DNA of 50,552 nt from Gallionellaceae bacterium (lineage in GTDB: Bacteria > Pseudomonadota > Gammaproteobacteria > Burkholderiales > Gallionellaceae), in NCBI GenBank assembly GCA_041490205.1, contig JBGPSQ010000001.1:1-50552 (forward strand), given 5' to 3'. The notes under the pieces are model-generated. The model did no database searches and was not told where the DNA came from. It saw nothing but the letters and a program-made list of their open reading frames with translations. The position numbers were made by a program, and so were the translations under genes. The number at the start of each line of letters is the position of its first letter. The first letter of the stretch is position 1. Shown in pieces: positions 22,639-39,115 of this stretch.

Positions 22639-22663
22639 GTCAAGGAGTTATGGTATAAACAAG

Positions 22664-23691
<1,028 letters not shown>

Positions 23692-23972: not shown

Positions 23973-24027
23973 CTACGCAGGTTGCCTGCGCCCTGCAATC
24001 TTTCGGGATTTGATCAGGAAGGCGTGT

Positions 24028-24066
24028 AGCCCCCTTGTGACTTTGTCACAAGGGGGCTTGTTTTTG
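24028..24066 (+). terminator. Strong rho-independent terminator after the ferredoxin gene
   Basis: AGCCCCCTTGTGAC (24028-24041) pairs perfectly with GTCACAAGGGGGCT (24045-24058) around a 3-nt loop, followed by TGTTTTT. Confidence 0.8.
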
Positions 24067-24133
24067 GGCGCTCAAGCCAGGATCCGATCGCAAATTTGCG
24101 TATAGCATGAAATGGCGAGCGAATCGCCGCAAA

Positions 24134-24184
24134 ATATCTAGTGCTGCACAGATATTTATCTAGTCAGGCGTACCTCATATCTAG
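24134..24184 (+). promoter_or_regulatory. Three direct repeats (A/T)TATCTAG spaced 21-22 bp apart, upstream of the acyl-carrier cassette
   Basis: ATATCTAG (24134-24141), TTATCTAG (24156-24163) and ATATCTAG (24177-24184), in an AT-rich stretch 140-190 nt upstream of the ACP start. Confidence 0.3.
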
Positions 24185-24320
24185 ACTGATCGGCATATTG
24201 CTATTTTATGAGTAGGGTTTATCCTGCCGCAGCTTAACATTACGTTAAAACGAGCTGACGAAGCCGGGAACGTGGTATTCGGCATGCAGCTATATTTGTC
24301 AAAGACATCAGGGGGAAATC

Positions 24321-24599
24321 TTGGAACACATTGATCAATACATCCGCACAACTTTTGCTTCCAGCGTCGGGATGAAGGAGGAAGAAATTTTCGGCGAGAA
24401 CCTGACGCTGGCGCAGATCATGGCGCGCTCCGGCAAATTGCACAACAGCATCGATCTCATGGAAGCATTTGCGCGTACCGCAAACGGCCTGAAAAAAGAG
24501 CACGGGGTGAAAGTGCGCCTTCCCGCATTTCCCCTGGATACACGCATCTCGGAGGTGCTGGCATCGTTCATGTCCGAGGTGGAAAAGGTCGCCGCTTGA
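24321..24599 (+). CDS. Acyl carrier protein-like (phosphopantetheine attachment site)
   Basis: 92 aa with a TTG start preceded by GGGGGA. ..GKLHNSIDLMEAFART.. resembles the (D/N)S(L/I)D..E Ppant-serine motif at the start of helix 2. It lies in a cassette with a PPTase and an acyl-AMP ligase. Confidence 0.65.
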   Translation: MEHIDQYIRTTFASSVGMKEEEIFGENLTLAQIMARSGKLHNSIDLMEAFARTANGLKKEHGVKVRLPAFPLDTRISEVLASFMSEVEKVAA

Positions 24600-24658
24600 A
24601 CCAACAAGCCAGAGTCGAACGCATTTAATCAACAACAACCAATACTGGGGAGCCAGCC

Positions 24659-25567
24659 ATGGCGCATACCGATAATCTACTTGAAAAAGGGGAAATTATC
24701 CCCGACCTGTACGACGCGTTTTCAAAGAAGAACATATCCTTGATAGACGTAACATGGAAGCAGCACAAATTTCATGAGCAGCGGCGCTGGAGCGCGGTGG
24801 AACTGCTGAGAGGGGTCAATTTCGATAAATTGTCCAAGGTGGACATGGTATGTCTCTGGAACGCAGGCAAGGCCGAGTTGACCACCAAGCCGGGCGCCGA
24901 CAGGCTTGCGCGCGTTGCCGATGCCGAGTGCAGGCGCTGGCTCAAGACCGATCCGAGCCTTGCCGCGTGCATGCAGGCTTGCGGCACCTGGAGCCGCTAC
25001 TGGAACGAGGAAGAAGCCTACCACGAGAATATCTTCAACATGATGGCGGAACGGCTGGGAATGGAACGTATCTCCGACGATACGTTCATTGAATACCGCA
25101 AGGTATTCCCCGGTGACAACGCGCTGCGCACCATGTTCTTGCTGGTGACTTCAGAAATTATCGCGACGGTCAATTATTTGCGCTGTGCGGCAGTCACGGA
25201 AGAACCCGGCATGCAAGCAATCTTCAAACAGGTTGCCGCAGACGAGGCGCAGCATATGCGCTATTTCATCTCGTTCGCCAAGGCGCTGGTGGACAGCGGG
25301 AAATACTCCGCGAAAGATGCCTTTGCGATCGCGCATCTGTTTCTGCGCGATGACGGTGAATTGCAGGGGAGCTTGAGGGAACGCACAGAAACCCGCGAGA
25401 CCCATGTCAATTGGTGGGACCATGTGGAGACAGGCGACATCGTCCGCCCGGATGACGTAGAAGGCAAGCACAAGATGATTTTCAGCGCGCTTGAGAAAGT
25501 CACCGGCATACGCGTAGGCAGTGTCACCGAAGTCGAAGAAACGTGGATGGATTTGGTCGCTGCCTGA
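24659..25567 (+). CDS. Soluble ferritin-like di-iron carboxylate oxidase (acyl-ACP desaturase-like)
   Basis: 302 aa. Two ExxH motifs, WNEEEAYHENIF and AADEAQHMRYF, are each preceded by a helix carrying a Glu (GKAELT, VTSEIIA). This is the four-helix-bundle di-iron ligand pattern E / ExxH / E / ExxH. SD GGGGAG. Confidence 0.7.
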   Translation: MAHTDNLLEKGEIIPDLYDAFSKKNISLIDVTWKQHKFHEQRRWSAVELLRGVNFDKLSKVDMVCLWNAGKAELTTKPGADRLARVADAECRRWLKTDPSLAACMQACGTWSRYWNEEEAYHENIFNMMAERLGMERISDDTFIEYRKVFPGDNALRTMFLLVTSEIIATVNYLRCAAVTEEPGMQAIFKQVAADEAQHMRYFISFAKALVDSGKYSAKDAFAIAHLFLRDDGELQGSLRERTETRETHVNWWDHVETGDIVRPDDVEGKHKMIFSALEKVTGIRVGSVTEVEETWMDLVAA

Positions 25568-25932
25568 TGATTTCCATCGGCATAGACCTCCAGTCCATTG
25601 ACGAGTTTGCCGCGGCAAGCGGCTTGCTTGAATCCGGCCTGTGCTTCACCGAGGGTGAGCGGGCGCACGCAGAGCAAGCGGCTTCCGGGGCCATTTCCTC
25701 CCTGGCGGGAATATTCGCCGCCAAGGAGGCGATGCTGAAGGCGCTGCCCATGAGGCCGCCGTGTTACTGGGACGAAATCGAGGTGGATCACGAAGCGAGC
25801 GGACGCCCCAGGTACCGGTTCCACGGCGCGCTTGCGCAGTGGCTCAAGGGCCAGCAATGGACCGTGACGCCGTCTATTTCGCACAGCGGCGGCTACGCGT
25901 TGGCGGTTGCCGTGGTGGGCCGCGAAAAATGA
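25567..25932 (+). CDS. AcpS-type 4'-phosphopantetheinyl transferase
   Basis: 121 aa. MISIGIDLQSI.. and ..FAAKEAMLKAL..ISHSGGYALAVAV match the holo-ACP synthase pattern. The ATG shares 1 nt with the upstream TGA. Confidence 0.8.
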   Translation: MISIGIDLQSIDEFAAASGLLESGLCFTEGERAHAEQAASGAISSLAGIFAAKEAMLKALPMRPPCYWDEIEVDHEASGRPRYRFHGALAQWLKGQQWTVTPSISHSGGYALAVAVVGREK

Positions 25933-26366
25933 GTGGATTCTGCAAAACCGTGACGCAACTGCCGGTGCGTCCCGGCGATCTCGACAGCGTCGGCCATGTC
26001 AACAATGCACGCGTCCTTGAATTTCTGGAACATGGCCGCTGGGATTGGCTGCGCAAAAACAACCTCGGTCGCGGGACCCGCGTCATTCCCGTAGTCGTGC
26101 GCATAGAGGCCGACTACCGGGCAGAGATTCCATGGGGCGACGTACGTGTTGAATCCGATATGGCGCAGGATGAAGACCTGACCTTTAAGGCAATATTCAA
26201 CCAGTTTATTTACGTGGGTTCGTCGCATGAACCAGCCGTTAAGGCGGTGGTGCATGTTGCCTTTATAGCCGCCAGCGAGCGCAGTGTTTGCACAGTGGCG
26301 GATTTCATCGACGACGCCAGTATCGGTGCTGAACAGCGAAATTTCCGTGCAACGAATGTCAGTTGA
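25929..26366 (+). CDS. Hotdog-fold (4HBT/YbgC-like) thioesterase
   Basis: 145 aa. ..RPGDLDSVGHVNNARVLEFLEHGRWDWL.. is the typical 4HBT N-terminal motif with the catalytic Asp. ATGA overlap with the PPTase gene. Confidence 0.75.
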   Translation: MSGFCKTVTQLPVRPGDLDSVGHVNNARVLEFLEHGRWDWLRKNNLGRGTRVIPVVVRIEADYRAEIPWGDVRVESDMAQDEDLTFKAIFNQFIYVGSSHEPAVKAVVHVAFIAASERSVCTVADFIDDASIGAEQRNFRATNVS

Positions 26367-26373
26367 GGATGCC

Positions 26374-27309
26374 ATGCCAGACGCGACTCCCCTAGAATTT
26401 CCAGACAGCCTTGAATGGGTCTCCACTCCGGATGGGCATCAGTTATCGCTCCGCATCATCGGGCAAGGCGAAGTCGCGCGTACGCGCGCCGCTGTGCTTT
26501 GCTTGCACGGAATCTTCTCGGACGGCCGGTTCTTCCTGAACACCAGGCAACAGGGTCCTGCCAGCGCATTTCTGAAGCGGGGCTGCCAGGTGTACGTTGG
26601 GGAATTGCGCGGCCATGGGCGCAGCAAATGGCCGACGTCGTCCCGCAAATGGAACTGGAGCTTCGACGAATACGTGAGTCAGGATATTCCCGCACTGATA
26701 AATGCGGTGGCCGAACGGCATAAAGGACCTCTGTTTGTGCTGGCGCACAGCATGGGCGGATATGCCTTGCTTGCGTCCCTGGGGCTGGACCCGGAGTTGC
26801 ACGCCAAAGTATCAGGCGTCTGCCTGGCAGCCTCGGCGGTCAATGACTATACGGAGATGGGCCTGCGCAAGCGCTTGCTGTTCCATTTCGCTTCCGGCCT
26901 GGGTGGGGTGCTCGGTTACTTTCCAGCCCGGCGCCTTCGCCTCGGCGTAGCCGATGAACCGGCGGCCCTGATGGCGCAGTTCGCCAAGTGGGCCCCGGAG
27001 CGGAGGTTTTCGAGCATGAATGGCAATGTGGATTACTGGCAATGTCTGCGCCGCGTCACGCTTCCGGTGTGGGCAGGGGTCGGCACGGCGGACAGGTTCC
27101 ATGCATCGGTGAACAGGGGCATGGCGCTTGTTGACAGACTTGGTTCCACGGACAAGCAATTCGTCGAGCTAGGGACAAAATCCGGCTTTTCGCGGGAGTT
27201 CGATCATGCAGGCGTCCTGCGCGGCGCAGCCGCAGAACAAGAGGTCTTACCTCAAATGGCGGCATGGATAGAAGCGAGAGCGGCTGCCCACGAGGGAAAA
27301 CGTGATTGA
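26374..27309 (+). CDS. Alpha/beta-fold hydrolase or acyltransferase
   Basis: Oxyanion HG (CLHGIFSDG), nucleophile elbow AHSMGG, and a C-terminal ..FDHAGVL.. His. SD GAGGA lies 4 nt upstream of ATG 26374. Confidence 0.75.
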   Translation: MPDATPLEFPDSLEWVSTPDGHQLSLRIIGQGEVARTRAAVLCLHGIFSDGRFFLNTRQQGPASAFLKRGCQVYVGELRGHGRSKWPTSSRKWNWSFDEYVSQDIPALINAVAERHKGPLFVLAHSMGGYALLASLGLDPELHAKVSGVCLAASAVNDYTEMGLRKRLLFHFASGLGGVLGYFPARRLRLGVADEPAALMAQFAKWAPERRFSSMNGNVDYWQCLRRVTLPVWAGVGTADRFHASVNRGMALVDRLGSTDKQFVELGTKSGFSREFDHAGVLRGAAAEQEVLPQMAAWIEARAAAHEGKRD

Positions 27310-28906
27310 CACGATTCTTTCCTCCCTCATTCTTCAGCTACGAGACAGACCTTCGCGAACCGGAATTTTTCTGGATGAAGATGACCGCGAACCATCATTC
27401 CTTTCCTATCCGGGTATCTATCAAAGGGTGCAGGCTGCGGCCAGGGCCTTTCGCTGCGCAGGCATAGCAAAAGGCACGCGGGTAATCCTTCCCTTTGCGA
27501 CCACCTTCGACTGCATCGTGGCGTTCCTGGCATTGGCCGGTGTAGGCGCAATCCCCTTGTCGGTAAAGACGCCCGCATCCGGCGGCAACCCGAGGGAATA
27601 CGCGGAATACCTGCGCCTGCTGGTTTCCAGGTTTGGCGCAAGCTTCATCTTGGATGTGCCTGGGCTTGTCCCTGATTTGCTGCCGATACCGCGAATCCAG
27701 GTGCCAGGGGAATCCGGCGGCGACTTTGCCGATTGGGCCGCGTCTGCCGGAGACGACATCGCCTTCATACAGTTCTCGTCCGGCACGACCAGCGAGCCCA
27801 AAGGTGTGGTCATCAGACACCGCCAGTTGATGCGGCAACTGGACATGATAGTTTTCCATGACGGCAGGACGATCAAAGATGTCGGGGCAAGCTGGTTGCC
27901 GCTGTATCACGATATGGGGCTCATAGGCACGCTGCTGACGCCTATTTATGCGGGCCACGATCTGCATTTATGCTCGCCGGCAAGGTTTTTGATGAATCCG
28001 ATGGATTGGCTGCACGCATTGTCGGCGCACGGCGTTTCGCTTACTGCGATTCCCAACTTCGGATTGGCTTACCTGTTGAAGCGGATCAGAGAGGCTTGCG
28101 CCGATGACCTTCAAGGGCTGCGTCTTGACCAACTTCGGCGCATCTACATCGGCAGCGACACCATAGATCCCGCCGTCGTCAATCAACTGGCGGATGAACT
28201 TGCGCCGTATGGGCTGCGCAGGAAAGCATTTTCGCCTTGCTATGGCATGGCCGAGGCGGTGCTGATGGTGTCATGCAAGTCCCAGGATGACGTCATGCGG
28301 GTGACTAACAGAATGGGGGCGGACGTGGTTTCTGTCGGCCCGCTGTTGACAGGGTTCGAACTGAAATTGACGCGGCCCGAAGGCGCTGTTGCCGCTCCCG
28401 GAGAAACCGGCGAAATACTGCTGCGCGGCGGCTCGATTGGGGACGGATATTTCGAGAGCGACCGCCCCATGCTCGATGCTGAAGGTTTTTATCACACCGG
28501 AGACATGGGCTTTGTCGAGGATGGCGAACTCTACATTACGGGAAGAATCGGGGATCGCGTCAAGATCAACGGACAAAACTATTATCTGCCCCATTTTGAA
28601 AATGTGTTGCAGGGCCACCCTGAACTGCGCCCCGGCGGCGTGGCCATCATCCAGGCAGGGGGCGATCTGATCGTGCTGGCCGAGCCCGGCAATTACCGCT
28701 CAAGCGAAAGGCTTGCTGGCTTGCGCGCCGAATTGTCGGATGTACTGCTATTGAATACCGGGGTGAAGGTATCGGCGGAACGGGTCTTCTTCGTGCGCCG
28801 TGGTCAGATCAAGCGCACCAGCAGCGGCAAGCTGCAACGCAACCTGGTCACCAAGGCGTTCATTGACCGGGAATTGAAGATATTCGAACTTACGCAGACC
28901 GCCTGA
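27302..28906 (+). CDS. Fatty acyl-AMP ligase (FAAL-type adenylating enzyme)
   Basis: 534 aa. AMP-binding core FIQFSSGTTSEPKGVVIRH, then YGMAEAVL, YHTGDMGFV..GELYITGRIGDRVKINGQNY, and a final SSGKLQR. Overall it resembles FadD32/FAAL enzymes rather than CoA ligases. The GTG start overlaps the hydrolase gene by 8 nt. Confidence 0.85.
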   Translation: MIDTILSSLILQLRDRPSRTGIFLDEDDREPSFLSYPGIYQRVQAAARAFRCAGIAKGTRVILPFATTFDCIVAFLALAGVGAIPLSVKTPASGGNPREYAEYLRLLVSRFGASFILDVPGLVPDLLPIPRIQVPGESGGDFADWAASAGDDIAFIQFSSGTTSEPKGVVIRHRQLMRQLDMIVFHDGRTIKDVGASWLPLYHDMGLIGTLLTPIYAGHDLHLCSPARFLMNPMDWLHALSAHGVSLTAIPNFGLAYLLKRIREACADDLQGLRLDQLRRIYIGSDTIDPAVVNQLADELAPYGLRRKAFSPCYGMAEAVLMVSCKSQDDVMRVTNRMGADVVSVGPLLTGFELKLTRPEGAVAAPGETGEILLRGGSIGDGYFESDRPMLDAEGFYHTGDMGFVEDGELYITGRIGDRVKINGQNYYLPHFENVLQGHPELRPGGVAIIQAGGDLIVLAEPGNYRSSERLAGLRAELSDVLLLNTGVKVSAERVFFVRRGQIKRTSSGKLQRNLVTKAFIDRELKIFELTQTA

Positions 28907-28931: not shown

Positions 28932-29687
28932 TCATTGCTTGCGGGTGGCGGAAAAAGCAGCATCCAGCCGCTTCATCAGCGGCTTGTGCAAAGACCGGGT
29001 GTAATTGTTCCAGTGCTTCATGGCCCGTTCGATTTCCCGGTTTTGTTCAACTGCGGCATCCTTGTCGCCTACGCCCAGCGCCCAGATTGCATATTCCACC
29101 CGGCTTTCCACACTGCCAAAGCGGGTGGTGGCGGAAACAAATTCGTTGCGGGCATCCAATTGCCTCCCGGCAAGCGCATACGCCTGCGCGAGCAGCAAAG
29201 TGGTTTGTTCCGGCCGGAAATCCGGGTTTTGCCTGCGGATGGCCTCCAGCAGTCCGGTCGCCGCATCACCCTGCCCATTTTGCAACCGGGCCCTGGCCGC
29301 GCCCAAAAGAATGTTCGGGTCGCTGGCGAAAGGGCCCTTCAGGCATGCCTCGTAATGCTCGGCCGCCTTGGCCGAATCGCCTATCTCGAGCAGTGCGCTA
29401 GCCAGCCGCATCTGGTTTTGTGCGGTCGGGGTCAGGTCGAAAGCGCGCGTCGCCTCGCGCAGCTCCTTCCCGGGATCGAGAGCCTTGGCAGTGGCTGCCG
29501 CCGCCCGGCGCACATCGTGGTGCAGGCGGCTATCGGGGAGATAAACCGTGAAAAAATAGACCGCGCTACCCAACATGGGAAACGAGAACAGGATGAATAA
29601 CCAGTAGGTTTCACGTCCCGTGCGCACGACATGAACGGCGAAAAAGAGCGCAATGAGAACGTGGATACTGCCCAAAAAATACGCCAT
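28932..29687 (-). CDS. Membrane protein with an N-terminal PLDc_N-like two-TM domain and C-terminal TPR-like repeats
   Basis: ..VLIALFFAVHVVRTGRETYWLFILFSFPMLGSAVYFF.. is the PLDc_N pattern. The rest is helical repeats (..KAAEHYEACLK.., ..LLLAQAYALAGR..). Confidence 0.65.
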   Translation of the reverse strand: MAYFLGSIHVLIALFFAVHVVRTGRETYWLFILFSFPMLGSAVYFFTVYLPDSRLHHDVRRAAAATAKALDPGKELREATRAFDLTPTAQNQMRLASALLEIGDSAKAAEHYEACLKGPFASDPNILLGAARARLQNGQGDAATGLLEAIRRQNPDFRPEQTTLLLAQAYALAGRQLDARNEFVSATTRFGSVESRVEYAIWALGVGDKDAAVEQNREIERAMKHWNNYTRSLHKPLMKRLDAAFSATRKQ

Positions 29688-30599: not shown

Positions 30600-30754
30600 C
30601 GGAATCCTTTGAGGGGTGTTGCCATGTATGTCATTTTGATATTGGGTTTGGTCTGGCGGACGGTAATTTTGGCAACAATCTCACCGCTCGACAAGGCCAA
30701 TAATTGATAGCATACGCAAATCAGATGAAGGACGATACTCGGGAGAGTCCGGAC

Positions 30755-31027
30755 ATGTGTATTGGTATTCCCATGCGGGTTGTTGAACTGGATGGCGCGT
30801 TTGCCTGGTGCGAAGGCCGCCATCGTCGCGAGCGGCTGAATATCCTTTTGCTGGGGGACGTGCTTCCCGGTGATTGGGTGTATGCCGTGCTGGGCCAGGC
30901 CCACGAAAAACTGACGGCGCAGAGAGTGGCTGAAATAAACCTTGCACTGGATGGCCTTGCTGCAGCATTGCAGGGAGAAACCAACCTGGATGCATATTTT
31001 CCCGATCTGATTCCCCCGCGCCGATGA
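30755..31027 (+). CDS. hypC: HypC/HupF-family [NiFe] hydrogenase assembly chaperone
   Basis: Starts MCIGIPMRVV, with the invariant N-terminal Cys2. 90 aa. SD GGGAGAG lies 7 nt upstream. The longer track ORF start is rejected. Confidence 0.85.
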   Translation: MCIGIPMRVVELDGAFAWCEGRHRRERLNILLLGDVLPGDWVYAVLGQAHEKLTAQRVAEINLALDGLAAALQGETNLDAYFPDLIPPRR

Positions 31028-31989
31028 CCAACTTCGATACTGGCCGCGTGCGAGTGAGGCTCACCTGTGAAGGTGGCCGGGTGAGTGCGATTCAGGTCAG
31101 CAGTGAACGCCCCGACGTTGCGATGCTCTTGCGTGACCGCACGGCAGGCCAGGCGGTGCGGCTGGTTCCCTCGCTGTTCGCGCTTTGCGGCCAGGCACAG
31201 GCGCGTGCGGCAGCGCTGGCGCTGGCTGCTGCGCGCGGGAAGGAATGCCCGCAACGGCTCGATGCCGCTGTTCAGCGCGAAGTGCTGCGCGAGCATCTTT
31301 GGCGCTGCTTGCTTGACCTGCCGATTCTGCTGGGTGGAGCCGCATTGCATCAGGAATTTGTCAGCGCTGCTAAATGCGTCACCGATGGAAAGCGTGACGA
31401 ACTGCGCGCGTTGCTGACAAGCCCCAAAATCGCAGCGCTTCGCCTGCGCTTAAAACAGGACAACGAAACGCATTCACATTCCCCTAATTTGCTGCCGCCG
31501 CTCGAAGCGAAAACTTCGCTGATCGAGTGGCCGCGTTTGAGCGCCGAATTCTGCCACCTTCCAAGCTGGCGCGGCAAGGCAGCGGAGACCGGAGCCATCG
31601 CACGGCATACACACGGAAATGAAGTATCGGTATCGCCGATGTCCGCCCGTTGGCTGGCACGTTTTGACGAGTTGCTGGATTGGGCGATGGGAAATATGCA
31701 GGTTCGCGCGGGCGGCGCTGTAAGTGCGGCCTCCGTGGCGCCCGGAATAGGCCGCGCGCTCATAGAGACTGCGCGCGGCCTGTTGATGCACGAGATCGCA
31801 CTCGATGGAGAGCGAGTAGCCGACTACCTGATCGCCGCGCCCACCGAATGGAATTTCCACCCGCAGGGAGCGCTGGCGGATCATCTACTGGAGCGGGAAG
31901 CCGTGGATCGTCATGCACTGCAACAGCGTGTCGCACGCGCCGTCGCCGCACTTGATCCTTGTGTGCCTTTTGAGCTGGAATGGGCATGA
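31024..31989 (+). CDS. hupK: HupK/HoxV-like hydrogenase scaffold (large-subunit-like protein lacking half of the Ni-Fe cysteines)
   Basis: 321 aa. LFALCGQAQ replaces the large-subunit RICGVC, and LDPCVPFELEWA replaces DPCIACAVH. It sits between hypC/hupF and the endopeptidase gene. ATGA overlap upstream. Confidence 0.75.
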   Translation: MTNFDTGRVRVRLTCEGGRVSAIQVSSERPDVAMLLRDRTAGQAVRLVPSLFALCGQAQARAAALALAAARGKECPQRLDAAVQREVLREHLWRCLLDLPILLGGAALHQEFVSAAKCVTDGKRDELRALLTSPKIAALRLRLKQDNETHSHSPNLLPPLEAKTSLIEWPRLSAEFCHLPSWRGKAAETGAIARHTHGNEVSVSPMSARWLARFDELLDWAMGNMQVRAGGAVSAASVAPGIGRALIETARGLLMHEIALDGERVADYLIAAPTEWNFHPQGALADHLLEREAVDRHALQQRVARAVAALDPCVPFELEWA

Positions 31990-32477
31990 AGATACTGGTG
32001 CTGGGCATCGGCAATACGCTGCTGGCCGACGAAGGCGTGGGCATCGTTGCCATGCGCGAATTGGAATCGCAATTCGGCCCCCGCGATGATATGGAATTTC
32101 TGGATGGCGGAACGCTATCTTTTACACTTGCCGTACCTATCGGCGAATGTTCGGCATTGCTGGTGATCGATGCTGCCGAGCTGGGTGCGGTTCCGGGCAC
32201 GGTGCGCAGTTTCGAAGGTGCTGAGATGGACTGCTTCCTGGGCGCGAACCGCAAGAGCAGCGTGCATGAAGTGGGGCTGCTCGACCTGATGTCGATCTCG
32301 CGCCTGACCGGACATTGGCCGGACCGGCGCGCCCTGATCGGCGTACAGCCTGCCGTGGTGGACTGGGGCGAGGCGCTGACGCCGGAAGTTGCCGCCGCTC
32401 TGCCGGAAGTCAAAACCGTTGCCATGGGCATCATCGGACGCTTCGCGAATCACCCGAGTATAACCATGCAGTATTAA
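31986..32477 (+). CDS. hupD: [NiFe] hydrogenase maturation endopeptidase (HyaD/HupD/HoxM family)
   Basis: MKILVLGIGNTLLADEGVGIV..LLVIDAA..SVHEVGLLDL. ATGA overlap with hupK. Confidence 0.88.
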   Translation: MKILVLGIGNTLLADEGVGIVAMRELESQFGPRDDMEFLDGGTLSFTLAVPIGECSALLVIDAAELGAVPGTVRSFEGAEMDCFLGANRKSSVHEVGLLDLMSISRLTGHWPDRRALIGVQPAVVDWGEALTPEVAAALPEVKTVAMGIIGRFANHPSITMQY

Positions 32478-32549
32478 TGTGTTGACCGGGCGGATTCTGT
32501 TGTGCAGAATGCTTTTGCATTCCGTTGTTAACAGCAACAAGGAGGCGAC

Positions 32550-33665
32550 ATGAAGCAGGCAGACCAGCCGGAAACCATACCCGGCACTGTAGGCGAAGGC
32601 TTGGCTCAACACGGCATCAGCCGCCGCGACTTCCTCCAATTCTGCACGTCCCTGGCCGCCATGCTGGCCCTGCCGCCCGCGATGGCAAGCGCAATGGCGG
32701 AGGCGATCTCCAAGGCAAAACGGCAATCGGTCATCTGGCTCTCGTTCCAGGAATGCACCGGCTGCACCGAATCCATCACGCGCTCGCATTCGCCCACGCT
32801 GGAAAGCCTGATCTTCGACATGATCTCGCTCGACTACCACCATACCTTGCAGGCCGCGTCTGGCGAGGCTGCCGAACAGGCCCGCGCACAGGCGATGAAA
32901 GACAACGAGGGCAAGTACCTGCTGATCGTCGACGGCTCGATCCCGATGGGCAATCCAGGCTATTCCGCCATTGCGGGCATCAGCAACCACGACATGCTGG
33001 TGGAGACAGCCCAGGGTGCGGCAGCCATCGTCGCGGTGGGAACCTGTGCAGCACACGGCGGCATCCCCCATGCGAACCCGAACCCCACGGGCGCGGTTCC
33101 GGTGAGCGAAATCGTCAAGGATAAACCCATCATCAACGTGCCCGGCTGCCCGCCGATACCGGTGGTAATGACAGGCGTGCTGGCGCATTTCCTGACTTTC
33201 GGTGGCATCCCTGAACTGGATGCTCTCGGTCGTCCAAAATCATTTTACGGCGAGACCATCCATGATCGCTGCTATCGCCGCCCATTCTACGACCAGGGCA
33301 AATTCGCGGAGACTTTCGATGACGAGGCGGCACGGCAGGGCTGGTGCCTGTTCAAGCTCGGCTGCAAGGGGCCGGTCACCTACAACGCATGCGCCACGGC
33401 CAAGTGGAACGACGGCACCAGTTTCCCCATCCAGTCCGGCCACGGTTGCATCGGCTGTTCCGAGCCGAATTTCTGGGATGCCGGGCCGTTCTACAAAGCG
33501 CTGTCCATGCCGGTGTCGGTGACACCCACCATGCTGGCGGCGGCGGCAGCGGCCGGTGCAGCGGCTGGGGTGGCGATCACCTGGCACAACCGCTCCACCA
33601 AAGCCAAGGCAAAAGCCGCACACGAAACAGTGACCGTGCAGGAACTGAAGCGGGAGGAAAAATGA
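32550..33665 (+). CDS. hynS: [NiFe] hydrogenase small subunit with Tat signal
   Basis: Twin-arginine signal ISRRDFLQFC. Fe-S cluster cysteines: ECTGCTES, GTCA..GG, NVPGCPP, CYRRPFYD, CLFKLGCKGP, CIGCSEPNFWD. Confidence 0.93.
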   Translation: MKQADQPETIPGTVGEGLAQHGISRRDFLQFCTSLAAMLALPPAMASAMAEAISKAKRQSVIWLSFQECTGCTESITRSHSPTLESLIFDMISLDYHHTLQAASGEAAEQARAQAMKDNEGKYLLIVDGSIPMGNPGYSAIAGISNHDMLVETAQGAAAIVAVGTCAAHGGIPHANPNPTGAVPVSEIVKDKPIINVPGCPPIPVVMTGVLAHFLTFGGIPELDALGRPKSFYGETIHDRCYRRPFYDQGKFAETFDDEAARQGWCLFKLGCKGPVTYNACATAKWNDGTSFPIQSGHGCIGCSEPNFWDAGPFYKALSMPVSVTPTMLAAAAAAGAAAGVAITWHNRSTKAKAKAAHETVTVQELKREEK

Positions 33666-34321
33666 ACCATCTCGATCTACTCACTTTCGCGCGCGGCAGT
33701 GCGCTGAACTGGACGCTCGTGCTGTTCGTCGCGGGCGTAGCGCTGCGTCTGTTCGAGATCCTCGGGCTTGGCCGCAAGGCCGACCTGGCAAGGCCCCGTA
33801 TCCACACACCCGGCAGCGGCTGGCGCACCATGTTTACGCGCTCGCTCCCTGCGCAAGGCATGTTGAAACGCGACCCGGTGACTTACATCAGCGGATACGT
33901 GTTCCATCTCGGCCTGCTGTTGGCCATTTTCATGTTTGCGCCGCACATCGCGTTCTTCCGCAGTATCACGGGCTTATCCTGGCCCGGCTTGCCTACGGCA
34001 CTGACCGATGCAGCAGTGGTGGCAGCGATGGTTGCCCTGTGCGTGCTGCTGGCACACAGGCTCAATAACCCGGTGAAACGCATGCTGTCCGGCACCGGCG
34101 ATTACGTCGCCTGGGCGGCGACTCTGCTGCCCCTACTGACTGGTTACCTGGCCTATCATCACCTGCTGCTGGAATACACACTGATGCTGGCGCTGCACCT
34201 GTTCTCCGTCGAATTGCTGCTGGTGCTGCTCCCGTTCACCAAACTGTTCCACACCTTCTCACTGTTCATATCGCGCTGGTACAACGGAGATACTTTTTCT
34301 CGTAAAGGAGTGGCGTCATGA
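33662..34321 (+). CDS. isp1: Isp1: NarI/DsrM-like membrane b-type cytochrome
   Basis: 219 aa with five predicted TM helices and conserved His residues (HLGLLL, HRLNN, YHHLLLE, HLFSVE, LFHTFS). ATGA overlap with hynS. Confidence 0.8.
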   Translation: MNHLDLLTFARGSALNWTLVLFVAGVALRLFEILGLGRKADLARPRIHTPGSGWRTMFTRSLPAQGMLKRDPVTYISGYVFHLGLLLAIFMFAPHIAFFRSITGLSWPGLPTALTDAAVVAAMVALCVLLAHRLNNPVKRMLSGTGDYVAWAATLLPLLTGYLAYHHLLLEYTLMLALHLFSVELLLVLLPFTKLFHTFSLFISRWYNGDTFSRKGVAS

Positions 34322-34337
34322 AAAAGTATACCTCGTC

Positions 34338-35606
34338 ATGAGCGCGACCCTCGCCAAGGGTATCAACGCCTTCAAGGAGGCGATTGATGCGCCCATCGCC
34401 AGCTACTTCTCCAGTTGCGTGCATTGCGGGTTATGCGCCGAAGCGTGCTTGTTTTACACCGAAACCGGCGAGGCCAAGTACACGCCCATCCACAAACTGG
34501 AACCCTTGCGGCGCGTGTGGAAGCAGGAATACACGCTGCTCGGCAAGCTGGGAAAAATGCTCGGCCTGTCCAGGCCGGTGACGGATGCGGAACTGGCCGA
34601 GTGGGAGCCGCTGGTCTATGATAGCTGCACGCTGTGCGGACGCTGTTCCCTGGTCTGCCCGGTGGGCAACGACATCACCTATATGATCCGCAAGATGCGC
34701 GAAGGCATGGCGGCTTCGGGGCATGCGCAGGAAGACTTGATTGCCGCCACGACACGCGCCATCACCATTGGTAGCCCGATGGGCATCAAGTGGCCTGCGG
34801 TGCTGGCGCAGATCAAACATGTGCAGGCCGAAACCGGCATCGAGGTGCCGGTGGAGCGCGCGGGGGCAGATTATCTCGTGCTGATGTCCTCGATGGAGAT
34901 CATCAATTTTCCCGAATACCTGTCCGCGCTCAGCCGCATCTTCAAGCAAGCCGGGGTGAGCTGGACGCTGGCGCAGGATGCGTTCGAAGCGACCAACAGC
35001 GGCATCCAGATTGGCGCTTCAGACTTGGCGTGTGAGATTGTTAATCGCATCGTGGTAGCCGCCGAACGCCTGAAGGTCAAATGCGTCATCAGCCCGGAAT
35101 GCGGCCATGCCTTTACCGCGTTGCGCTGGGAAGGGCCGAACTTGATAGGCAGGCCATACACCTTCGAGGTGAAGCATATACTCGAAGTGCTGGACGAGCT
35201 GCACGCCGCAGGCAAACTCAAGACCCAGGGCAAGGATTCTCGCCCGCTGACTTATCACGACCCCTGCCAGATCGCCAGGCGCGGCGGCGTGGTGGAGCAG
35301 CCGCGCCGCCTGCTGGGAAAGGTCGCCGCCGATTTCCGCGAGATGCCCGATGCGGGCGTGATGAACTGGTGCTGCGGCGGCGGTGGCGGCGTTTCGGCCA
35401 ATACGCGCGCAGAACCGTTGCGCTTGCAGGCTTTCAAGGTCAAGAAGCGGCAAATCGAAGCCACTGGCGTGCGAACGTTGATCACCGCCTGCGCCAATTG
35501 CCGCATCGTGCTGGAAGAAGGTCTTGAACATAACCACATGCAGGTCGAAGTAATCGGCCTGACCGAATTGCTGGCCACCTATCTTGTCGAGGATAAAGCC
35601 CCATGA
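34338..35606 (+). CDS. isp2: Isp2: HdrD/DsrK-like Fe-S protein with CCG domains
   Basis: Two ferredoxin-type motifs CVHCGLCAEAC and CTLCGRCSLVCP. C-terminal Cys-rich CCG-type motifs (..PECGH.., ..HDPCQ.., NWCCGGGGG, TACANC). Confidence 0.85.
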   Translation: MSATLAKGINAFKEAIDAPIASYFSSCVHCGLCAEACLFYTETGEAKYTPIHKLEPLRRVWKQEYTLLGKLGKMLGLSRPVTDAELAEWEPLVYDSCTLCGRCSLVCPVGNDITYMIRKMREGMAASGHAQEDLIAATTRAITIGSPMGIKWPAVLAQIKHVQAETGIEVPVERAGADYLVLMSSMEIINFPEYLSALSRIFKQAGVSWTLAQDAFEATNSGIQIGASDLACEIVNRIVVAAERLKVKCVISPECGHAFTALRWEGPNLIGRPYTFEVKHILEVLDELHAAGKLKTQGKDSRPLTYHDPCQIARRGGVVEQPRRLLGKVAADFREMPDAGVMNWCCGGGGGVSANTRAEPLRLQAFKVKKRQIEATGVRTLITACANCRIVLEEGLEHNHMQVEVIGLTELLATYLVEDKAP

Positions 35607-37384
35607 ACGAACCGACCACCCGCCGCGTCATCATCGATCCGGTCACGCGCATCGAGGGGCACTTGCGCATTGAAGCGGAGACCGATGCAGATGGCCGCAT
35701 CACCCGAGCCTCATCCGCAGGCACCATGGTGCGCGGCATCGAGCTCATCCTGCGCGGGCGCGATCCGCGCGAAGCGTGGGCATTCGCGCAGCGCATCTGC
35801 GGCGTGTGCACCCTGGTGCACGGTATCGCCTCGGTGCGCGCGGTCGAGAGCGCGCTGAGGATCGAAGTGCCGAGCAATGCGCAATTGATCCGCAACCTGA
35901 TGATAGGCGCGCAGTACATCCATGACCACGTGATGCACTTCTACCACCTGCATGCACTGGACTGGGTGGATGTGGTCTCGGCCCTGAAGGCCGACCCCAA
36001 GGCCACTTCCGCGCTGGCGCAGAGCCTTTCCGGCTACGCAAAATCGTCGCCGGGCTATTTCAGCGACGTGCAGAAAAAGCTGAAAGGCTTTGTCGAGGCT
36101 GGACAGTTAGGCATCTTCGCCAATGGCTACTGGGGACACCCGGCCTACAAACTGCCGCCGGAAGCCAACCTCATGGCGGTGGCGCACTACCTGGATGCGC
36201 TGGCCTGGCAGCGCGACGTGGTGAAGCTGCATGCCGTGTTCGGCGGAAAAAATCCGCACCCGATGTTCCTGGTCGGCGGTGTGCCCTGTGCCATCAGCAT
36301 AGACCCCAACCACTCCGGCCAGGGCAACGGGCCGCATTTCCACGGCGGCAATTCCGGCACGGCGCTCAACGAGGTCGGGTTGCAAACCGTGCAGAACGCG
36401 ATCAAGCAGATGCGCGAATTCGTCGATCAGGTCTATGTGCCGGATACGCTGGCCATCGCCGGGTTCTACAAGGACTGGTTCAAGCAGGGCGAGGGCGTCG
36501 GCAACTTCCTCACCTACGGCGACTTCCCGGCCAAGGGCATGTCCGATCCGGCGTCGTTCCTGATTCCCTCCGGCGTGATCCTGGATCGCGACCTGAGCCG
36601 GATACATCCCCTGGACCTGAATGCAGAAGACGAGATTCAGGAATTCGTCAGCCACTCCTGGTACGGCTATTCCGTGGGCAAAGGGGGCGGCCTGCATCCC
36701 TACAAGGGCGAGACCACGCTCGACTACACCGGGCCGAAGCCGCCCTACCAGCAGCTCGATGTGGACAAGGATTATTCCTGGCTGAAATCGCCGCGCTGGA
36801 AGGGCAGGGCGGTCGAGGTGGGGCCGCTGGCGCGCGTGCTGATGCTGTATGCATCCGGGCACGAGCAGACCAAAGAGCTGGTCGGCATGGCGCTGAAAAA
36901 ACTCGATGCCCCGGTGCAGGCGTTGTATTCCACCCTGGGCCGCACCGCCGCGCGCACGCTGGAAACCAAGATCATTGCCGACGCCATGCAGGGCTGGTAC
37001 GACCATTTGGTCGCCAACATCAAGGCAGGCGACGTCAGGACTTTCAACGAAACAAAGTGGGAACCCTCGACCTGGCCCAGCCATGCGCAGGGCGTTGGTG
37101 TCACCGAGGCGCCGCGCGGCGCGCTTGCGCACTGGATCGTCATCGACGACCAGAAAATATCCAACTACCAGGCCGTCGTACCCAGCACCTGGAATGCCGG
37201 CCCGCGCGATGCCCAGGGAAATCAGGGGCCATATGAAGCGGCCCTGAAAGGCCACCAGTTGCACGACGTGAAACAACCCATCGAAGTGCTGCGCACCATC
37301 CACAGCTTCGATCCCTGCATTGCCTGCGCGGTGCACCTCACCGACCCGGAGGGCAAGGAGTTGGTGCAGGTGAAGGTGGTCTGA
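35603..37384 (+). CDS. hynL: [NiFe] hydrogenase large subunit
   Basis: N-terminal RIEGH..RICGVCT and C-terminal DPCIACAVH Ni-Fe ligand motifs. 593 aa. ATGA overlap with isp2. Confidence 0.95.
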   Translation: MNEPTTRRVIIDPVTRIEGHLRIEAETDADGRITRASSAGTMVRGIELILRGRDPREAWAFAQRICGVCTLVHGIASVRAVESALRIEVPSNAQLIRNLMIGAQYIHDHVMHFYHLHALDWVDVVSALKADPKATSALAQSLSGYAKSSPGYFSDVQKKLKGFVEAGQLGIFANGYWGHPAYKLPPEANLMAVAHYLDALAWQRDVVKLHAVFGGKNPHPMFLVGGVPCAISIDPNHSGQGNGPHFHGGNSGTALNEVGLQTVQNAIKQMREFVDQVYVPDTLAIAGFYKDWFKQGEGVGNFLTYGDFPAKGMSDPASFLIPSGVILDRDLSRIHPLDLNAEDEIQEFVSHSWYGYSVGKGGGLHPYKGETTLDYTGPKPPYQQLDVDKDYSWLKSPRWKGRAVEVGPLARVLMLYASGHEQTKELVGMALKKLDAPVQALYSTLGRTAARTLETKIIADAMQGWYDHLVANIKAGDVRTFNETKWEPSTWPSHAQGVGVTEAPRGALAHWIVIDDQKISNYQAVVPSTWNAGPRDAQGNQGPYEAALKGHQLHDVKQPIEVLRTIHSFDPCIACAVHLTDPEGKELVQVKVV

Positions 37385-37702: not shown

Positions 37703-39115
37703 GTGTCACTATTTAAGCAAATCGCAATCTTCACCCTATTATTTCTTGAGGGCTGCGTGGGTTTGCCTGAGTCAAACAACAAACCCATAGTAAATGACGT
37801 CACGAAACTCAATCCTATCGCTGTTGACCGCATTGTTGTACCGCATAATGTTTCCGAAATCATCGAGGCGGTCAAGGGAGCAAAGGGGCCGGTATCAATT
37901 GGCGGAGGACGGTTCAGCATGGGCGGTCAAACAGCTACCGAAGGCACTCTGCAGATTGATATGCGAGAATTCAACAAAGTGGTCTCGTTTTCGCCCCAAA
38001 AAAAGGAAGTTACTGTCGAGAGTGGAATAACTTGGCGCCAACTGCAGGAAGTTATCGATCCGTACAATCTGTCTGTGAAAATCATGCAGACTTATTCCGA
38101 CTTTACGGTCGGCGGCTCATTAAGTGTAAATGCTCACGGAAGATATATTGGTTATGGCCCTTTGGTTCTGTCTGCCAAGAGGATTGGCCTCGTGCTGGCC
38201 GACGGATCCTATGTAAATGCTTCACCTGAAAAGAATCCAGAGATCTTTTATGGCGCGATTGGCGGGTATGGCGGCATAGGGGTAATTGCTGATACCACGC
38301 TTGAATTGGTGGACAACGTAAAAGTTCACCGAGTCAGCAAGGTCATGCCCTTTTCTCAATATAAAGATTATTTTGTTAAGGAGGTCAGAGACAACCCCAA
38401 GGCTATTTTTCATAATGCAGACATCTATCCCAATTCATATGACACGGTTCGCGCAACAACCTATGAGGAAACCGGGCTCCCTCTTACACGCGAACAAAGG
38501 TTAATCCCCAAAGAACAGAGCTATTGGCTTGATCGCACCCTTATTGGCATTATTTCAGAAGCACCGGGCGGGAAGGGATTTCGCCAATATGTAGTTGACC
38601 CGATTTTATTTCATGATGACCGCGTAACTTGGAGAAACTACGAAGCGAGCTACACAGCACTTGAACTTGAGCCGTCTTCCAGGCGAGATTCAACGTATAT
38701 ACTTCAAGAGTATTTTGTTCCCGTTGAGCAACTCAACGAATTCGTACCCCAAATGGCAAAAGTATTAAATGATAATCATGTAAATGTTATCAATATTTCG
38801 ATTCGGCATTCCAAGCAGGATCCGGGAACCCTCTTGGCTTGGGCTAAGCAAGAAGTATTTGCATTTGTTATTTACTACAAACAAGGAACGGGCATTGCTG
38901 ATAGAGAGCATGTTGGCATTTGGACTAGGCAGTTGATTGATGTGGCTGTAGCCAATGGTGGCAGGTATTATCTACCCTACCAGATTCATGCGACAGAACA
39001 ACAATTCAAAGCTGCATATCCTGGTTTTGATAAATTCTTTGATCTTAAAAAGAGAGTTGACCCAACCAATAAATTCAGAAATAAACTCTGGGATGCTTAC
39101 TATCCGCCACAATGA
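37703..39115 (+). CDS. Secreted or membrane-anchored FAD-linked oxidase (FAD_binding_4 / vanillyl-alcohol-oxidase superfamily)
   Basis: The N-terminal hydrophobic signal ends LFLEG-C, a possible lipobox. The FAD-binding region reads ..PHNVSEIIEAVKGAKGPVSIGGGRFSMGGQ.. The C-terminus ends ..KKRVDPTNKFRNKLW, as in ALO/oxidase C-termini. GTG start with SD GGGGAGG. AT-richer than its flanks. Confidence 0.8.
   Translation: MSLFKQIAIFTLLFLEGCVGLPESNNKPIVNDVTKLNPIAVDRIVVPHNVSEIIEAVKGAKGPVSIGGGRFSMGGQTATEGTLQIDMREFNKVVSFSPQKKEVTVESGITWRQLQEVIDPYNLSVKIMQTYSDFTVGGSLSVNAHGRYIGYGPLVLSAKRIGLVLADGSYVNASPEKNPEIFYGAIGGYGGIGVIADTTLELVDNVKVHRVSKVMPFSQYKDYFVKEVRDNPKAIFHNADIYPNSYDTVRATTYEETGLPLTREQRLIPKEQSYWLDRTLIGIISEAPGGKGFRQYVVDPILFHDDRVTWRNYEASYTALELEPSSRRDSTYILQEYFVPVEQLNEFVPQMAKVLNDNHVNVINISIRHSKQDPGTLLAWAKQEVFAFVIYYKQGTGIADREHVGIWTRQLIDVAVANGGRYYLPYQIHATEQQFKAAYPGFDKFFDLKKRVDPTNKFRNKLWDAYYPPQ

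Follow-up and report, generated by a model that had tools for sequence, protein, structure and literature searches.

A candidate mobile operon for oxidation of a carrier-bound fatty acid, found in a Gallionellaceae bacterium and across bacterial phyla

What might a bacterium make with a putative carrier protein and enzymes that would prime it, load it, oxidise its cargo and unload it, when no synthase is encoded beside them? The question is raised by six genes within a stretch of 50,552 nucleotides (nt) from a Gallionellaceae bacterium (assembly GCA_041490205.1, contig JBGPSQ010000001.1, positions 1 to 50,552), which is referred to here as the window. The genes encode a protein resembling acyl carrier proteins (ACPs), a soluble ferritin-like di-iron protein, a 4'-phosphopantetheinyl transferase (PPTase), a hotdog thioesterase, an alpha/beta hydrolase and a ligase resembling fatty acyl-AMP ligases (FAALs) (Table 1). 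We favour, at a probability of about 0.6, the reading that they form a horizontally mobile, self-contained operon which loads, oxidises and releases a fatty acid, and whose chemical steps we infer. An earlier note on this DNA had called the six protein classes and had proposed a single operon with neither a ketosynthase (KS) nor a nonribosomal peptide synthetase (NRPS).

Gene order across phyla and on plasmids

A scan that took one genome from each species yielded 80 loci, whose cassette genes were counted by tblastn with the window's six proteins. In 70 of them the order carrier, di-iron protein, (PPTase), thioesterase, (hydrolase), ligase is kept. All six genes stand in the same order at 35 loci; the hydrolase is missing from 20, the hydrolase together with the PPTase from 11, and the PPTase from 4, and most of the few gene losses fall at contig ends. 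Counted gene by gene, the di-iron protein (the query) is present at all 80 loci, the carrier at 78, the thioesterase and the ligase at 77 each, the PPTase at 61 and the hydrolase at 39, none of these last being cyanobacterial. The conserved core consists of four genes, those for the carrier, the di-iron protein, the thioesterase and the ligase, and the conserved arrangement is far beyond chance. Co-occurrence of the genes outside this genome, which the earlier note had proposed as a test, is thus observed; its six-gene set recurs widely, as one variant of a unit with a smaller core.

The loci are spread over at least six phyla: Actinomycetota (Streptomyces, Kitasatospora, Frankia, Catellatospora), Myxococcota (Corallococcus, Hyalangium, Nannocystaceae), Cyanobacteria (Nostoc, Oscillatoria, Symploca), Pseudomonadota (Oxalobacteraceae, which hold the closest relatives at 76%, and Thiohalocapsa), Acidobacteriota (a Pyrinomonadaceae genome) and Eremiobacterota (one genome). 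The genes for the carrier and the di-iron protein invariably lie side by side and show the highest conservation, with median identities of 55% and 60%, respectively. In Hyalangium versicolor (L083, 8177-9459), as also at loci L042 and L047, a tandem second carrier and di-iron pair lies directly upstream of the full cassette. The adjacency, the top conservation and the duplication of the pair in Hyalangium speak for this carrier as the one on which the di-iron enzyme acts.

The genes flanking the cassette are unrelated between lineages, and neither a KS nor a condensation (C) domain recurs among them. No gene family from outside the cassette is common to more than about 25 of the 80 loci, and in an all-against-all clustering of open reading frames (ORFs) from these loci, which is noisy in high-GC genomes, the only recurrent neighbours are lineage-restricted, namely a major facilitator superfamily (MFS) gene, a cytochrome P450 and genus-level synteny. 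The persistence of gene order amid unrelated flanks suggests that the unit needs no KS, C domain or other partner beside it in order to work. In the window itself a domain scan of the cassette and its flanks revealed neither a KS nor an NRPS, as the earlier note had maintained.

Two copies of the cassette reside on plasmids. On the conjugative plasmid pNsp_b of Nostoc sp. ATCC 53789 (L088, 1-11622) it adjoins a DDE integrase, XisH/XisI and a site-specific integrase, and on a plasmid of Xenorhabdus sp. TH1 (L087, 3846-13629) it adjoins IS110 and Tn3 transposases; both copies consist of the bare unit of four to five genes. Taken together, unrelated flanks and plasmid copies suggest that the unit is self-contained and mobile. 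Within the window's own lineage the cassette is stably placed: two related metagenome contigs (L085 and L086), with carriers of 90% identity, have the cassette at this same locus between rsmD-coaD-fdx and a tetratricopeptide repeat (TPR) gene followed by mutM, which rules out a recent insertion in this genome.

These observations also bear on an alternative in which the cassette is a front end that delivers its oxidised acyl-carrier in trans to an unlinked polyketide synthase (PKS), NRPS or lipid/glycolipid acyltransferase. Stand-alone FAAL/ACP pairs usually prime assembly lines (PMC11837247, PMC12820801), one Streptomyces locus adjoins other acyl-activating genes, and the hydrolase could itself be the acyltransferase, in the manner of RhlA, with the hotdog protein as an editing enzyme. 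Yet the flanks, wholly different between phyla, hold no recurrent KS or C domain to receive the product, the thioesterase is found at 77 loci and the hydrolase at 39, and the plasmids carry the unit bare, so that we regard a front-end role as unlikely.

In the window, the six ORFs of the cassette span 24321-28906 on the + strand. Their successive junctions, checked on the sequence letters, are a gap of 59 nt, overlaps of 1 nt and 4 nt, a gap of 7 nt and an overlap of 8 nt. The carrier gene starts at TTG 24321, with a GGGGGA ribosome-binding site upstream, and the di-iron gene at ATG 24659, 59 nt past the carrier gene. TGATG (25565-25569) forms the 1-nt stop/start overlap between the di-iron and PPTase genes, ATGA (25929-25932) the 4-nt overlap between the PPTase and thioesterase genes, and the ligase gene opens at GTG 27302, so that its first 8 nt are shared with the end of the hydrolase gene (27309). 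For the hydrolase the mechanical ORF opens at 26284; the likely start is ATG 26374, with GAGG 5 nt upstream and the same start called in close relatives, and ATG 26356 is a possible alternative. On its upstream side the cassette is set apart from rsmD-coaD-fdx by the terminator that follows the ferredoxin gene, and at the other end the ligase stop is separated by 25 nt from the stop of the convergent TPR gene. Junctions, terminator and convergent neighbour bear out the single six-gene operon of the earlier note. Its promoter presumably lies in the AT-rich intergenic region, in which a scan found no sigma-70 consensus match.

Table 1. Positions of the cassette genes and of other features of the window
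Feature	Position	Strand	Length (amino acids)	Basis or description
Dedicated carrier protein, non-canonical ACP family, putative phosphopantetheine Ser43	24321-24599	+	92	Fold model, invariant Ser
Ferritin-like di-metal carboxylate oxidase, soluble; tight new clade with soluble acyl-ACP desaturases as relatives	24659-25567	+	302	Ligand set, fold
AcpS-type 4'-phosphopantetheinyl transferase	25567-25932	+	121	Pfam ACPS 43.3 bits (cut-off 25)
Hotdog thioesterase, YbgC/FadM class, proposed release step	25929-26366	+	145	Pfam 4HBT_2 53.4 bits (cut-off 25.5), 4HBT 30.9 bits
Lipase-like alpha/beta hydrolase, accessory gene	26374-27309	+	311	Pfam Hydrolase_4 65.3 bits, Abhydrolase_6 51.5 bits
FAAL-like acyl-adenylate ligase without FAAL-specific insertion, presumed carrier loader	27302-28906	+	534	Pfam AMP-binding 159.6 bits
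Intrinsic terminator of upstream ferredoxin gene	24028-24066	+		14-bp stem (9 G-C pairs), 3-nt loop, T-run
AT-rich intergenic region, presumed cassette promoter	24067-24320	+		GC 0.46-0.51 vs ~0.58 around
coaD (phosphopantetheine adenylyltransferase)	23203-23691			
TPR gene, convergent	28932-29687	-		
Hydrogenase region, with hypC	30704-37384			
NiFeSe_Hases C-terminal match	31024-31989			Weak match
[NiFe] hydrogenase small subunit	32550-33665			
Unassigned ORF in hydrogenase region	33344-34321			
CCG/4Fe-4S Isp2-like protein	34338-35606			
Hydrogenase large subunit	35603-37384			
FAD_binding_4 / ALO-type oxidase gene	37703-39115			Low-GC patch (0.45 vs ~0.59)

Families and conserved residues of the six proteins

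The six protein classes called in the earlier note were upheld, and all the motifs it had quoted are present in the window proteins, those of the carrier and of the di-iron protein being kept in 28 homologues each. Its expectations of Pfam matches had mixed outcomes. Models of the ACPS, 4HBT, alpha/beta hydrolase and AMP-binding families are matched above their cut-offs by four of the proteins. The PP-binding match foreseen for the carrier is missing, as is the FAAL insertion foreseen for the ligase, and the di-iron protein does reach a desaturase and a ferritin-like family, both below cut-off.

Neither Pfam nor NCBIfam gave a match to the carrier at E <= 0.1, and among 40 carrier homologues none has a precomputed Pfam domain and none is named. 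Its assignment is therefore based on the predicted fold and an invariant serine. The block NS(I/V)DLMEaFA is unchanged in an alignment of 28 homologues, with N42, S43, D45, L46, M47, E48, A49 and F50 invariant, and in the AlphaFold model (pLDDT 90.7) Ser43 forms the N-terminus of helix 43-61 (helix II). Nearly all of the top 50 matches of this model in a Foldseek search of the PDB are ACP, AcpM, DltC or PCP, with TM scores of 0.5-0.67 and weak E values of at least 0.1. The residue preceding Ser43 is Asn where Asp is usual, and the family is less acidic than Escherichia coli AcpP, with a median isoelectric point of about 5.1, and 5.9 for the window carrier, against 4.05 for an AcpP sequence. 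On the strength of the model we accept the protein as a putative carrier of a family that the PP-binding profile misses.

The PPTase contains the motifs GIDL, FAAKEA and ISHSGG. It exceeds the cut-off of the NCBIfam model pantethn_trn (TIGR00556; 59.2 bits, cut-off 45.35) and stays below those of all housekeeping AcpS equivalog models (65.8 vs 124), which suggests a divergent, dedicated enzyme. The thioesterase has the motif DLDSVGHVNN and keeps the N-terminal catalytic Asp region of YbgC/FadM; among solved structures it comes closest to 2fuj and to E. coli YbaW/FadM (1njk), with which the D-x-D-x-x-G-H-V-N-N region is aligned. A ScoD/FcoT-like Michael-addition enzyme was ruled out for the hotdog protein, the matches being FadM/YbgC hydrolases. 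The hydrolase, with AHSMGG as nucleophile elbow, has gastric and lysosomal acid lipases as its only PDB relatives by sequence.

The C-terminal domain of the ligase matches AMP-dom_DIP2-like in Pfam, and the best PDB matches of the protein are the olefin-synthase FAAL 7r7e (8e-60), a Legionella FAAL (3kxw) and EcFAAL (3pbk). Its leading NCBIfam matches are FAAL subfamily models, the best of them the fatty acyl-AMP ligase model NF006624, at 252 bits with a cut-off of 600, and every FAAL model remains below its cut-off. In the alignments to 7r7e and 3pbk the query is short of about 18 residues at the very site of the FAAL-specific insertion, and the A5 (GMAE) and A6 (GExGE) motifs are 48-49 residues apart in the window ligase, compared with 67 in 7r7e. 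The spacing of 48-49 is shared by the 38 cassette homologues with a clean pattern match, from 71 scanned, so that the insertion is absent here and across the cassette homologues. In FAALs, coenzyme A (CoA) is excluded by a helix (FSH) and by bulky pocket residues (W, M and F of EcFAAL; PMC8460268), and in the sequence alignment the window segments SWLPLYHDMGL, FLMNPMDWL and PNF align with 7r7e without gaps across the CoA-excluding region. Loading of the private carrier would seem the most sensible function of the ligase despite the missing insertion.

Alternatively, the ligase could be a conventional acyl-CoA synthetase, in a cassette that would serve the catabolism or detoxification of fatty acids and not biosynthesis. 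The missing insertion and the lipase-like hydrolase would fit such a role, as would a thioesterase resembling FadM, a helper of beta-oxidation, but a dedicated carrier and a dedicated PPTase would be useless in CoA-based catabolism. Since the ligase is moreover closest to FAALs, with its gap-free alignment over the CoA-excluding region, and beta-oxidation genes are not recurrent near the cassette, we hold a catabolic module to be highly improbable.

The di-iron protein scores 17.1 bits against FA_desaturase_2 (PF03405, cut-off 22.7) and 20 bits against Rubrerythrin (cut-off 22.8), and the Pfam scan gave no match to FA_desaturase (PF00487); some of its homologues carry a precomputed PF03405 match. 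Databases hold 286 homologues, most of them about 60% identical even across phyla. A profile of the protein searched against 1.84 billion representatives at 50% identity found 54 matches, with about four full-length representatives, and so few matches indicate an unusually tight and isolated family. Ten distant relatives were scanned, all of which match FA_desaturase_2, nine above the cut-off, and three of which have an N-terminal ferredoxin domain. A PDB search with the sequence returned only chance-level matches.

Among 28 homologues from four phyla, E119xxH122, E166 and E196xxH199 are invariant and E90 is kept in at least 90%, a pattern that reads as the classical ligand set of four carboxylates and two histidines. 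The ligand-bearing helices are predicted at high confidence in the fold model (pLDDT 86, pTM 0.88), whose nearest PDB folds are plant soluble acyl-ACP desaturases, then R2lox and RNR-R2; the structural alignments with desaturases show 10-14% sequence identity. Further invariant residues of the family are C108, W111, Y114, W115, the triplet E117-E118-E119 and C176, together with a H-V-N-W-W-D motif near the C-terminus (residues 249-254). For the non-ligand residues of 108-123, for C176 and for H-V-N-W-W-D no counterpart could be assigned in known desaturases.

The same load-tailor-release scheme could be served by an enzyme that hydroxylates, epoxidises or halogenates an unactivated carbon of the tethered chain, as in the case of CylC and NocO. 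A FAAL, an ACP and a ferritin-like di-iron protein form the trios CylA/CylB/CylC and NocL/NocM/NocO (PMC12101540, PMC8406957), the fold does not fix the type of reaction, and the extreme conservation of the family would fit a specialised one. The CylC-type halogenase signature consists of QExxH and HxxDExxH, with three His and three Glu (PMC12101540), whereas the 28-homologue alignment reads E118-E119-A-x-H122 and V192-A-A-D195-E196-x-x-H199, so that the halogenase Gln and the extra His, at whose position V192 stands, are both absent; comparison with the published motifs thus rules out CylC-type identity. CylC homologues are also reported to be rare outside cyanobacteria (PMC8406957), and the cassette family is mostly non-cyanobacterial. 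Halogenation is unlikely on these grounds, which have no bearing on hydroxylation or epoxidation, and the group of non-desaturase reactions as a whole is possible, if doubtful.

Cleavage of the carrier-bound chain is a further alternative, with the thioesterase then freeing a short dicarboxylic or oxo acid. It has a precedent in the ferritin-like di-iron oxygenase BioE, which cuts C14-C18 acyl-ACP/CoA (PMC12704756), and a carrier with a thioesterase would suit the freeing of the carrier-bound half. BioE is, however, a small protein like the cyanobacterial aldehyde-deformylating oxygenase (cADO), with ligands E26, E53, H56, E125, E155 and H158 (PMC12704756), while the window protein has 302 residues and ligands at about 90/119/122/166/196/199, and is more like acyl-ACP desaturases than ADO, which is outside its top structural matches. 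Size and ligand spacing rule out assignment to the BioE family, biotin genes lie beside the cassette at none of the loci inspected, and we consider a cleavage reaction very unlikely. The protein appears to add a tight new clade to the ferritin-like di-iron oxidases.

Proposed pathway and relation to known systems

In the reading we favour, the AcpS-type PPTase would convert the private carrier to its holo form at Ser43, after which the FAAL-like ligase would adenylate a free fatty acid and pass the acyl group to the carrier thiol. The acid may be supplied by the lipase-like hydrolase, translationally coupled to the ligase, by release from an ester lipid. The soluble di-iron enzyme would then oxidise the carrier-bound chain with O2 and electrons from a host ferredoxin, and the FadM/YbgC-type thioesterase would hydrolyse the thioester and free the modified acid, which in many actinobacterial versions is probably exported by the adjacent MFS transporter. 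A substrate, a direction of flux, a di-iron reaction and a role for the hydrolase are thereby proposed for genes whose content, family or fold, catalytic-residue conservation and order across phyla are matters of observation.

Export is suggested by the adjacent transporters. In about 20 actinobacterial loci from Streptomyces, Kitasatospora and Saccharothrix (e.g. L081, 6687-9586) an MFS gene lies directly upstream of the carrier gene, and is about 80-94% identical among the 15 closest loci; five Streptomyces loci have a P450 gene as well, which suggests an extra oxidation in those lineages. In the two metagenome contigs related to the window, a gene for a 356-residue AI-2E_transport (PerM/TqsA-family) permease stands between fdx and the carrier gene (L085, 8418-9488; L086, 2801-3871), and it may be a lineage-specific exporter of the cassette product, or unrelated to it.

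Desaturation would be the likeliest chemistry, at roughly a third overall, followed by hydroxylation or epoxidation. In its favour, soluble acyl-ACP desaturases are nearest in fold to the di-iron protein and are what its Pfam matches point to. One locus alone hints at an olefin made or handled by the di-iron enzyme: in a metagenome-assembled genome of Myxococcaceae (L048, 3362-10225) the order is Hydrolase_4, CMAS, Hydrolase_4, carrier, di-iron protein and MFS transporter, with no ligase, PPTase or hotdog thioesterase. CMAS, a methyltransferase of the cyclopropane/mycolic-acid type, acts on cis double bonds of acyl chains.

Several points weigh against the proposed pathway, which as a whole is built on sequence, fold models and gene context. 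The di-iron protein is under every Pfam cut-off, so that 'desaturase' denotes its nearest neighbour and not membership, and its best structural matches (7t63, 2uw1 and 1oq9) are weak, with TM scores of 0.42-0.52 and E values of at least 6e-3, R2lox and RNR-R2 being similar. The type of reaction is not to be read from the fold, because CylC and NocO chlorinate and BioE cleaves C-C bonds, and the association with CMAS comes from one locus. Lack of the FAAL-specific insertion means that CoA instead of the carrier could be the acceptor of the ligase. No reductase or ferredoxin gene is present in the cassette, and the absence of the hydrolase from half of the loci makes its supply role dispensable.

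Comparison with known systems places the cassette closest in logic to trios of the CylA/B/C type and to thiotemplated alkyne/polyyne cassettes, by analogy of their components. In CylA/B/C and NocL/M/O, as proposed here, a stand-alone ligase loads a stand-alone carrier and a soluble ferritin-like di-iron enzyme functionalises the chain with ferredoxin-derived electrons. Their product goes on to a PKS or other enzymes, whereas the cassette has a hotdog thioesterase; by published motifs it also differs in being without QExxH and HxxDExxH, in having a carrier outside Pfam PP-binding, and in its mainly non-cyanobacterial distribution. The bacterial alkyne/polyyne cassettes (JamABC, TtuABC, Cay/Pgn) share a FAAL, an ACP and a thioesterase that frees the modified fatty acid, and a logic of loading, desaturation and release without KS or NRPS (PMC9828172, PMC8406139). 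They differ in their membrane histidine-box desaturases, in a thioesterase of the alpha/beta-hydrolase type and in the lack of a dedicated AcpS-type PPTase.

Other systems share single elements. The soluble acyl-ACP desaturases of plants and mycobacteria (FA_desaturase_2) have the nearest fold, the E/ExxH/E/ExxH ligands and an acyl-carrier substrate, as we infer for the di-iron protein; they are longer (about 330-360 residues, against 302) and act on acyl-ACP derived from fatty acid synthase and not on a ligase-loaded private carrier. BioE likewise belongs to the ferritin-like di-iron enzymes and has long-chain acyl thioesters as substrates (PMC12704756), but it is encoded in biotin operons with no private carrier, ligase or thioesterase. 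The lipothrenin cluster, with a FAAL (litD), an R2-like protein (litE, compared by description) and an ACP (litF), was rejected as a counterpart on account of its different gene set, which lacks a PPTase and a hotdog thioesterase and includes many extra genes. The isonitrile lipopeptide core, encoded by ScoB-E and by the Mycobacterium tuberculosis genes Rv0097-Rv0100, likewise has an ACP, a hotdog protein, an acyl-ACP ligase and, as its oxidase, a non-haem iron enzyme, but the oxidase is of the mononuclear Fe/2-oxoglutarate type and the system depends on an NRPS; domains of neither such an oxidase (ScoE) nor an NRPS occur in the cassette or its flanks. FadD10 (Rv0099) is a FAAL-type ligase that likewise has no insertion. 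It is not among the PDB matches of the ligase at E <= 1e-20, and Rv0098 is not among the PDB sequence matches of the hotdog protein.

That the earlier note did not recognise the cassette as a characterised pathway agrees with the database records and open-access literature searched. NCBIfam has no model specific to it, and the NCBI, UniRef and JGI names of its proteins do not go beyond 'hypothetical', 'ferritin-like domain-containing protein' or 'acyl-ACP desaturase'. A description of the gene set or its product was not found in the open-access full-text literature, which omits most subscription journals. We rate the cassette as a candidate thiotemplated unit for fatty-acid tailoring, in which both the di-iron clade and the carrier family are new and the FAAL-like ligase is of an insertion-less kind; that the unit is conserved and portable is well supported.

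It is tempting to speculate, albeit with low confidence, that the di-iron protein founds a new functional class, performing neither classical desaturation nor CylC-type halogenation, and that the product is a conserved diffusible lipid, a signal or an allelochemical, shared through horizontal transfer by bacteria of at least six phyla. Under this tentative reading the developmentally complex hosts, i.e. Streptomyces, Frankia, myxobacteria and filamentous cyanobacteria, would be notable. Protein identities of about 60% from cyanobacteria to actinomycetes, in a mobile accessory operon, do suggest a product with a general ecological role.

If the proposed pathway is correct, a portable unit of four to six genes yields a single, specific oxidised fatty acid with no synthase involved, and the ferritin-like di-iron oxidases that act on carrier-bound substrates gain a new clade and possibly a new reaction, in a group of enzymes sought for selective C-H functionalisation. 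The cassette also exposes two gaps in annotation, a carrier-protein family invisible to the Pfam PP-binding model and a clade of FAAL-like ligases that lack the insertion by which FAALs are commonly recognised. It is small and self-contained and is present in culturable strains (Streptomyces sparsogenes ATCC 25498, Corallococcus coralloides, Nostoc sp. ATCC 53789), which makes the question directly testable.

Surroundings of the cassette in the window

Before the cassette, the window encodes M16 peptidases, rsmD, coaD and a 2[4Fe-4S] ferredoxin, and after it the TPR protein, mutM/fpg, hypC and a [NiFe] hydrogenase cluster. The cassette, with its need for 4'-phosphopantetheine, has the phosphopantetheine adenylyltransferase gene coaD two genes upstream; in view of the synteny in relatives and of the intervening terminator, this proximity is a coincidental housekeeping context. 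Between positions 22655 and 29666 the only stretch of the window without DNA homology to the related contig L085 is the AT-rich spacer at 23974-24311 (about 348 nt).

The hydrogenase genes (Table 1) follow a split hynS-isp1-isp2-hynL layout, which we take to be typical of sulfur-oxidising proteobacteria and which hints at the lifestyle of the host. Beyond them, the oxidase gene of the low-GC patch may represent a separate horizontal acquisition.

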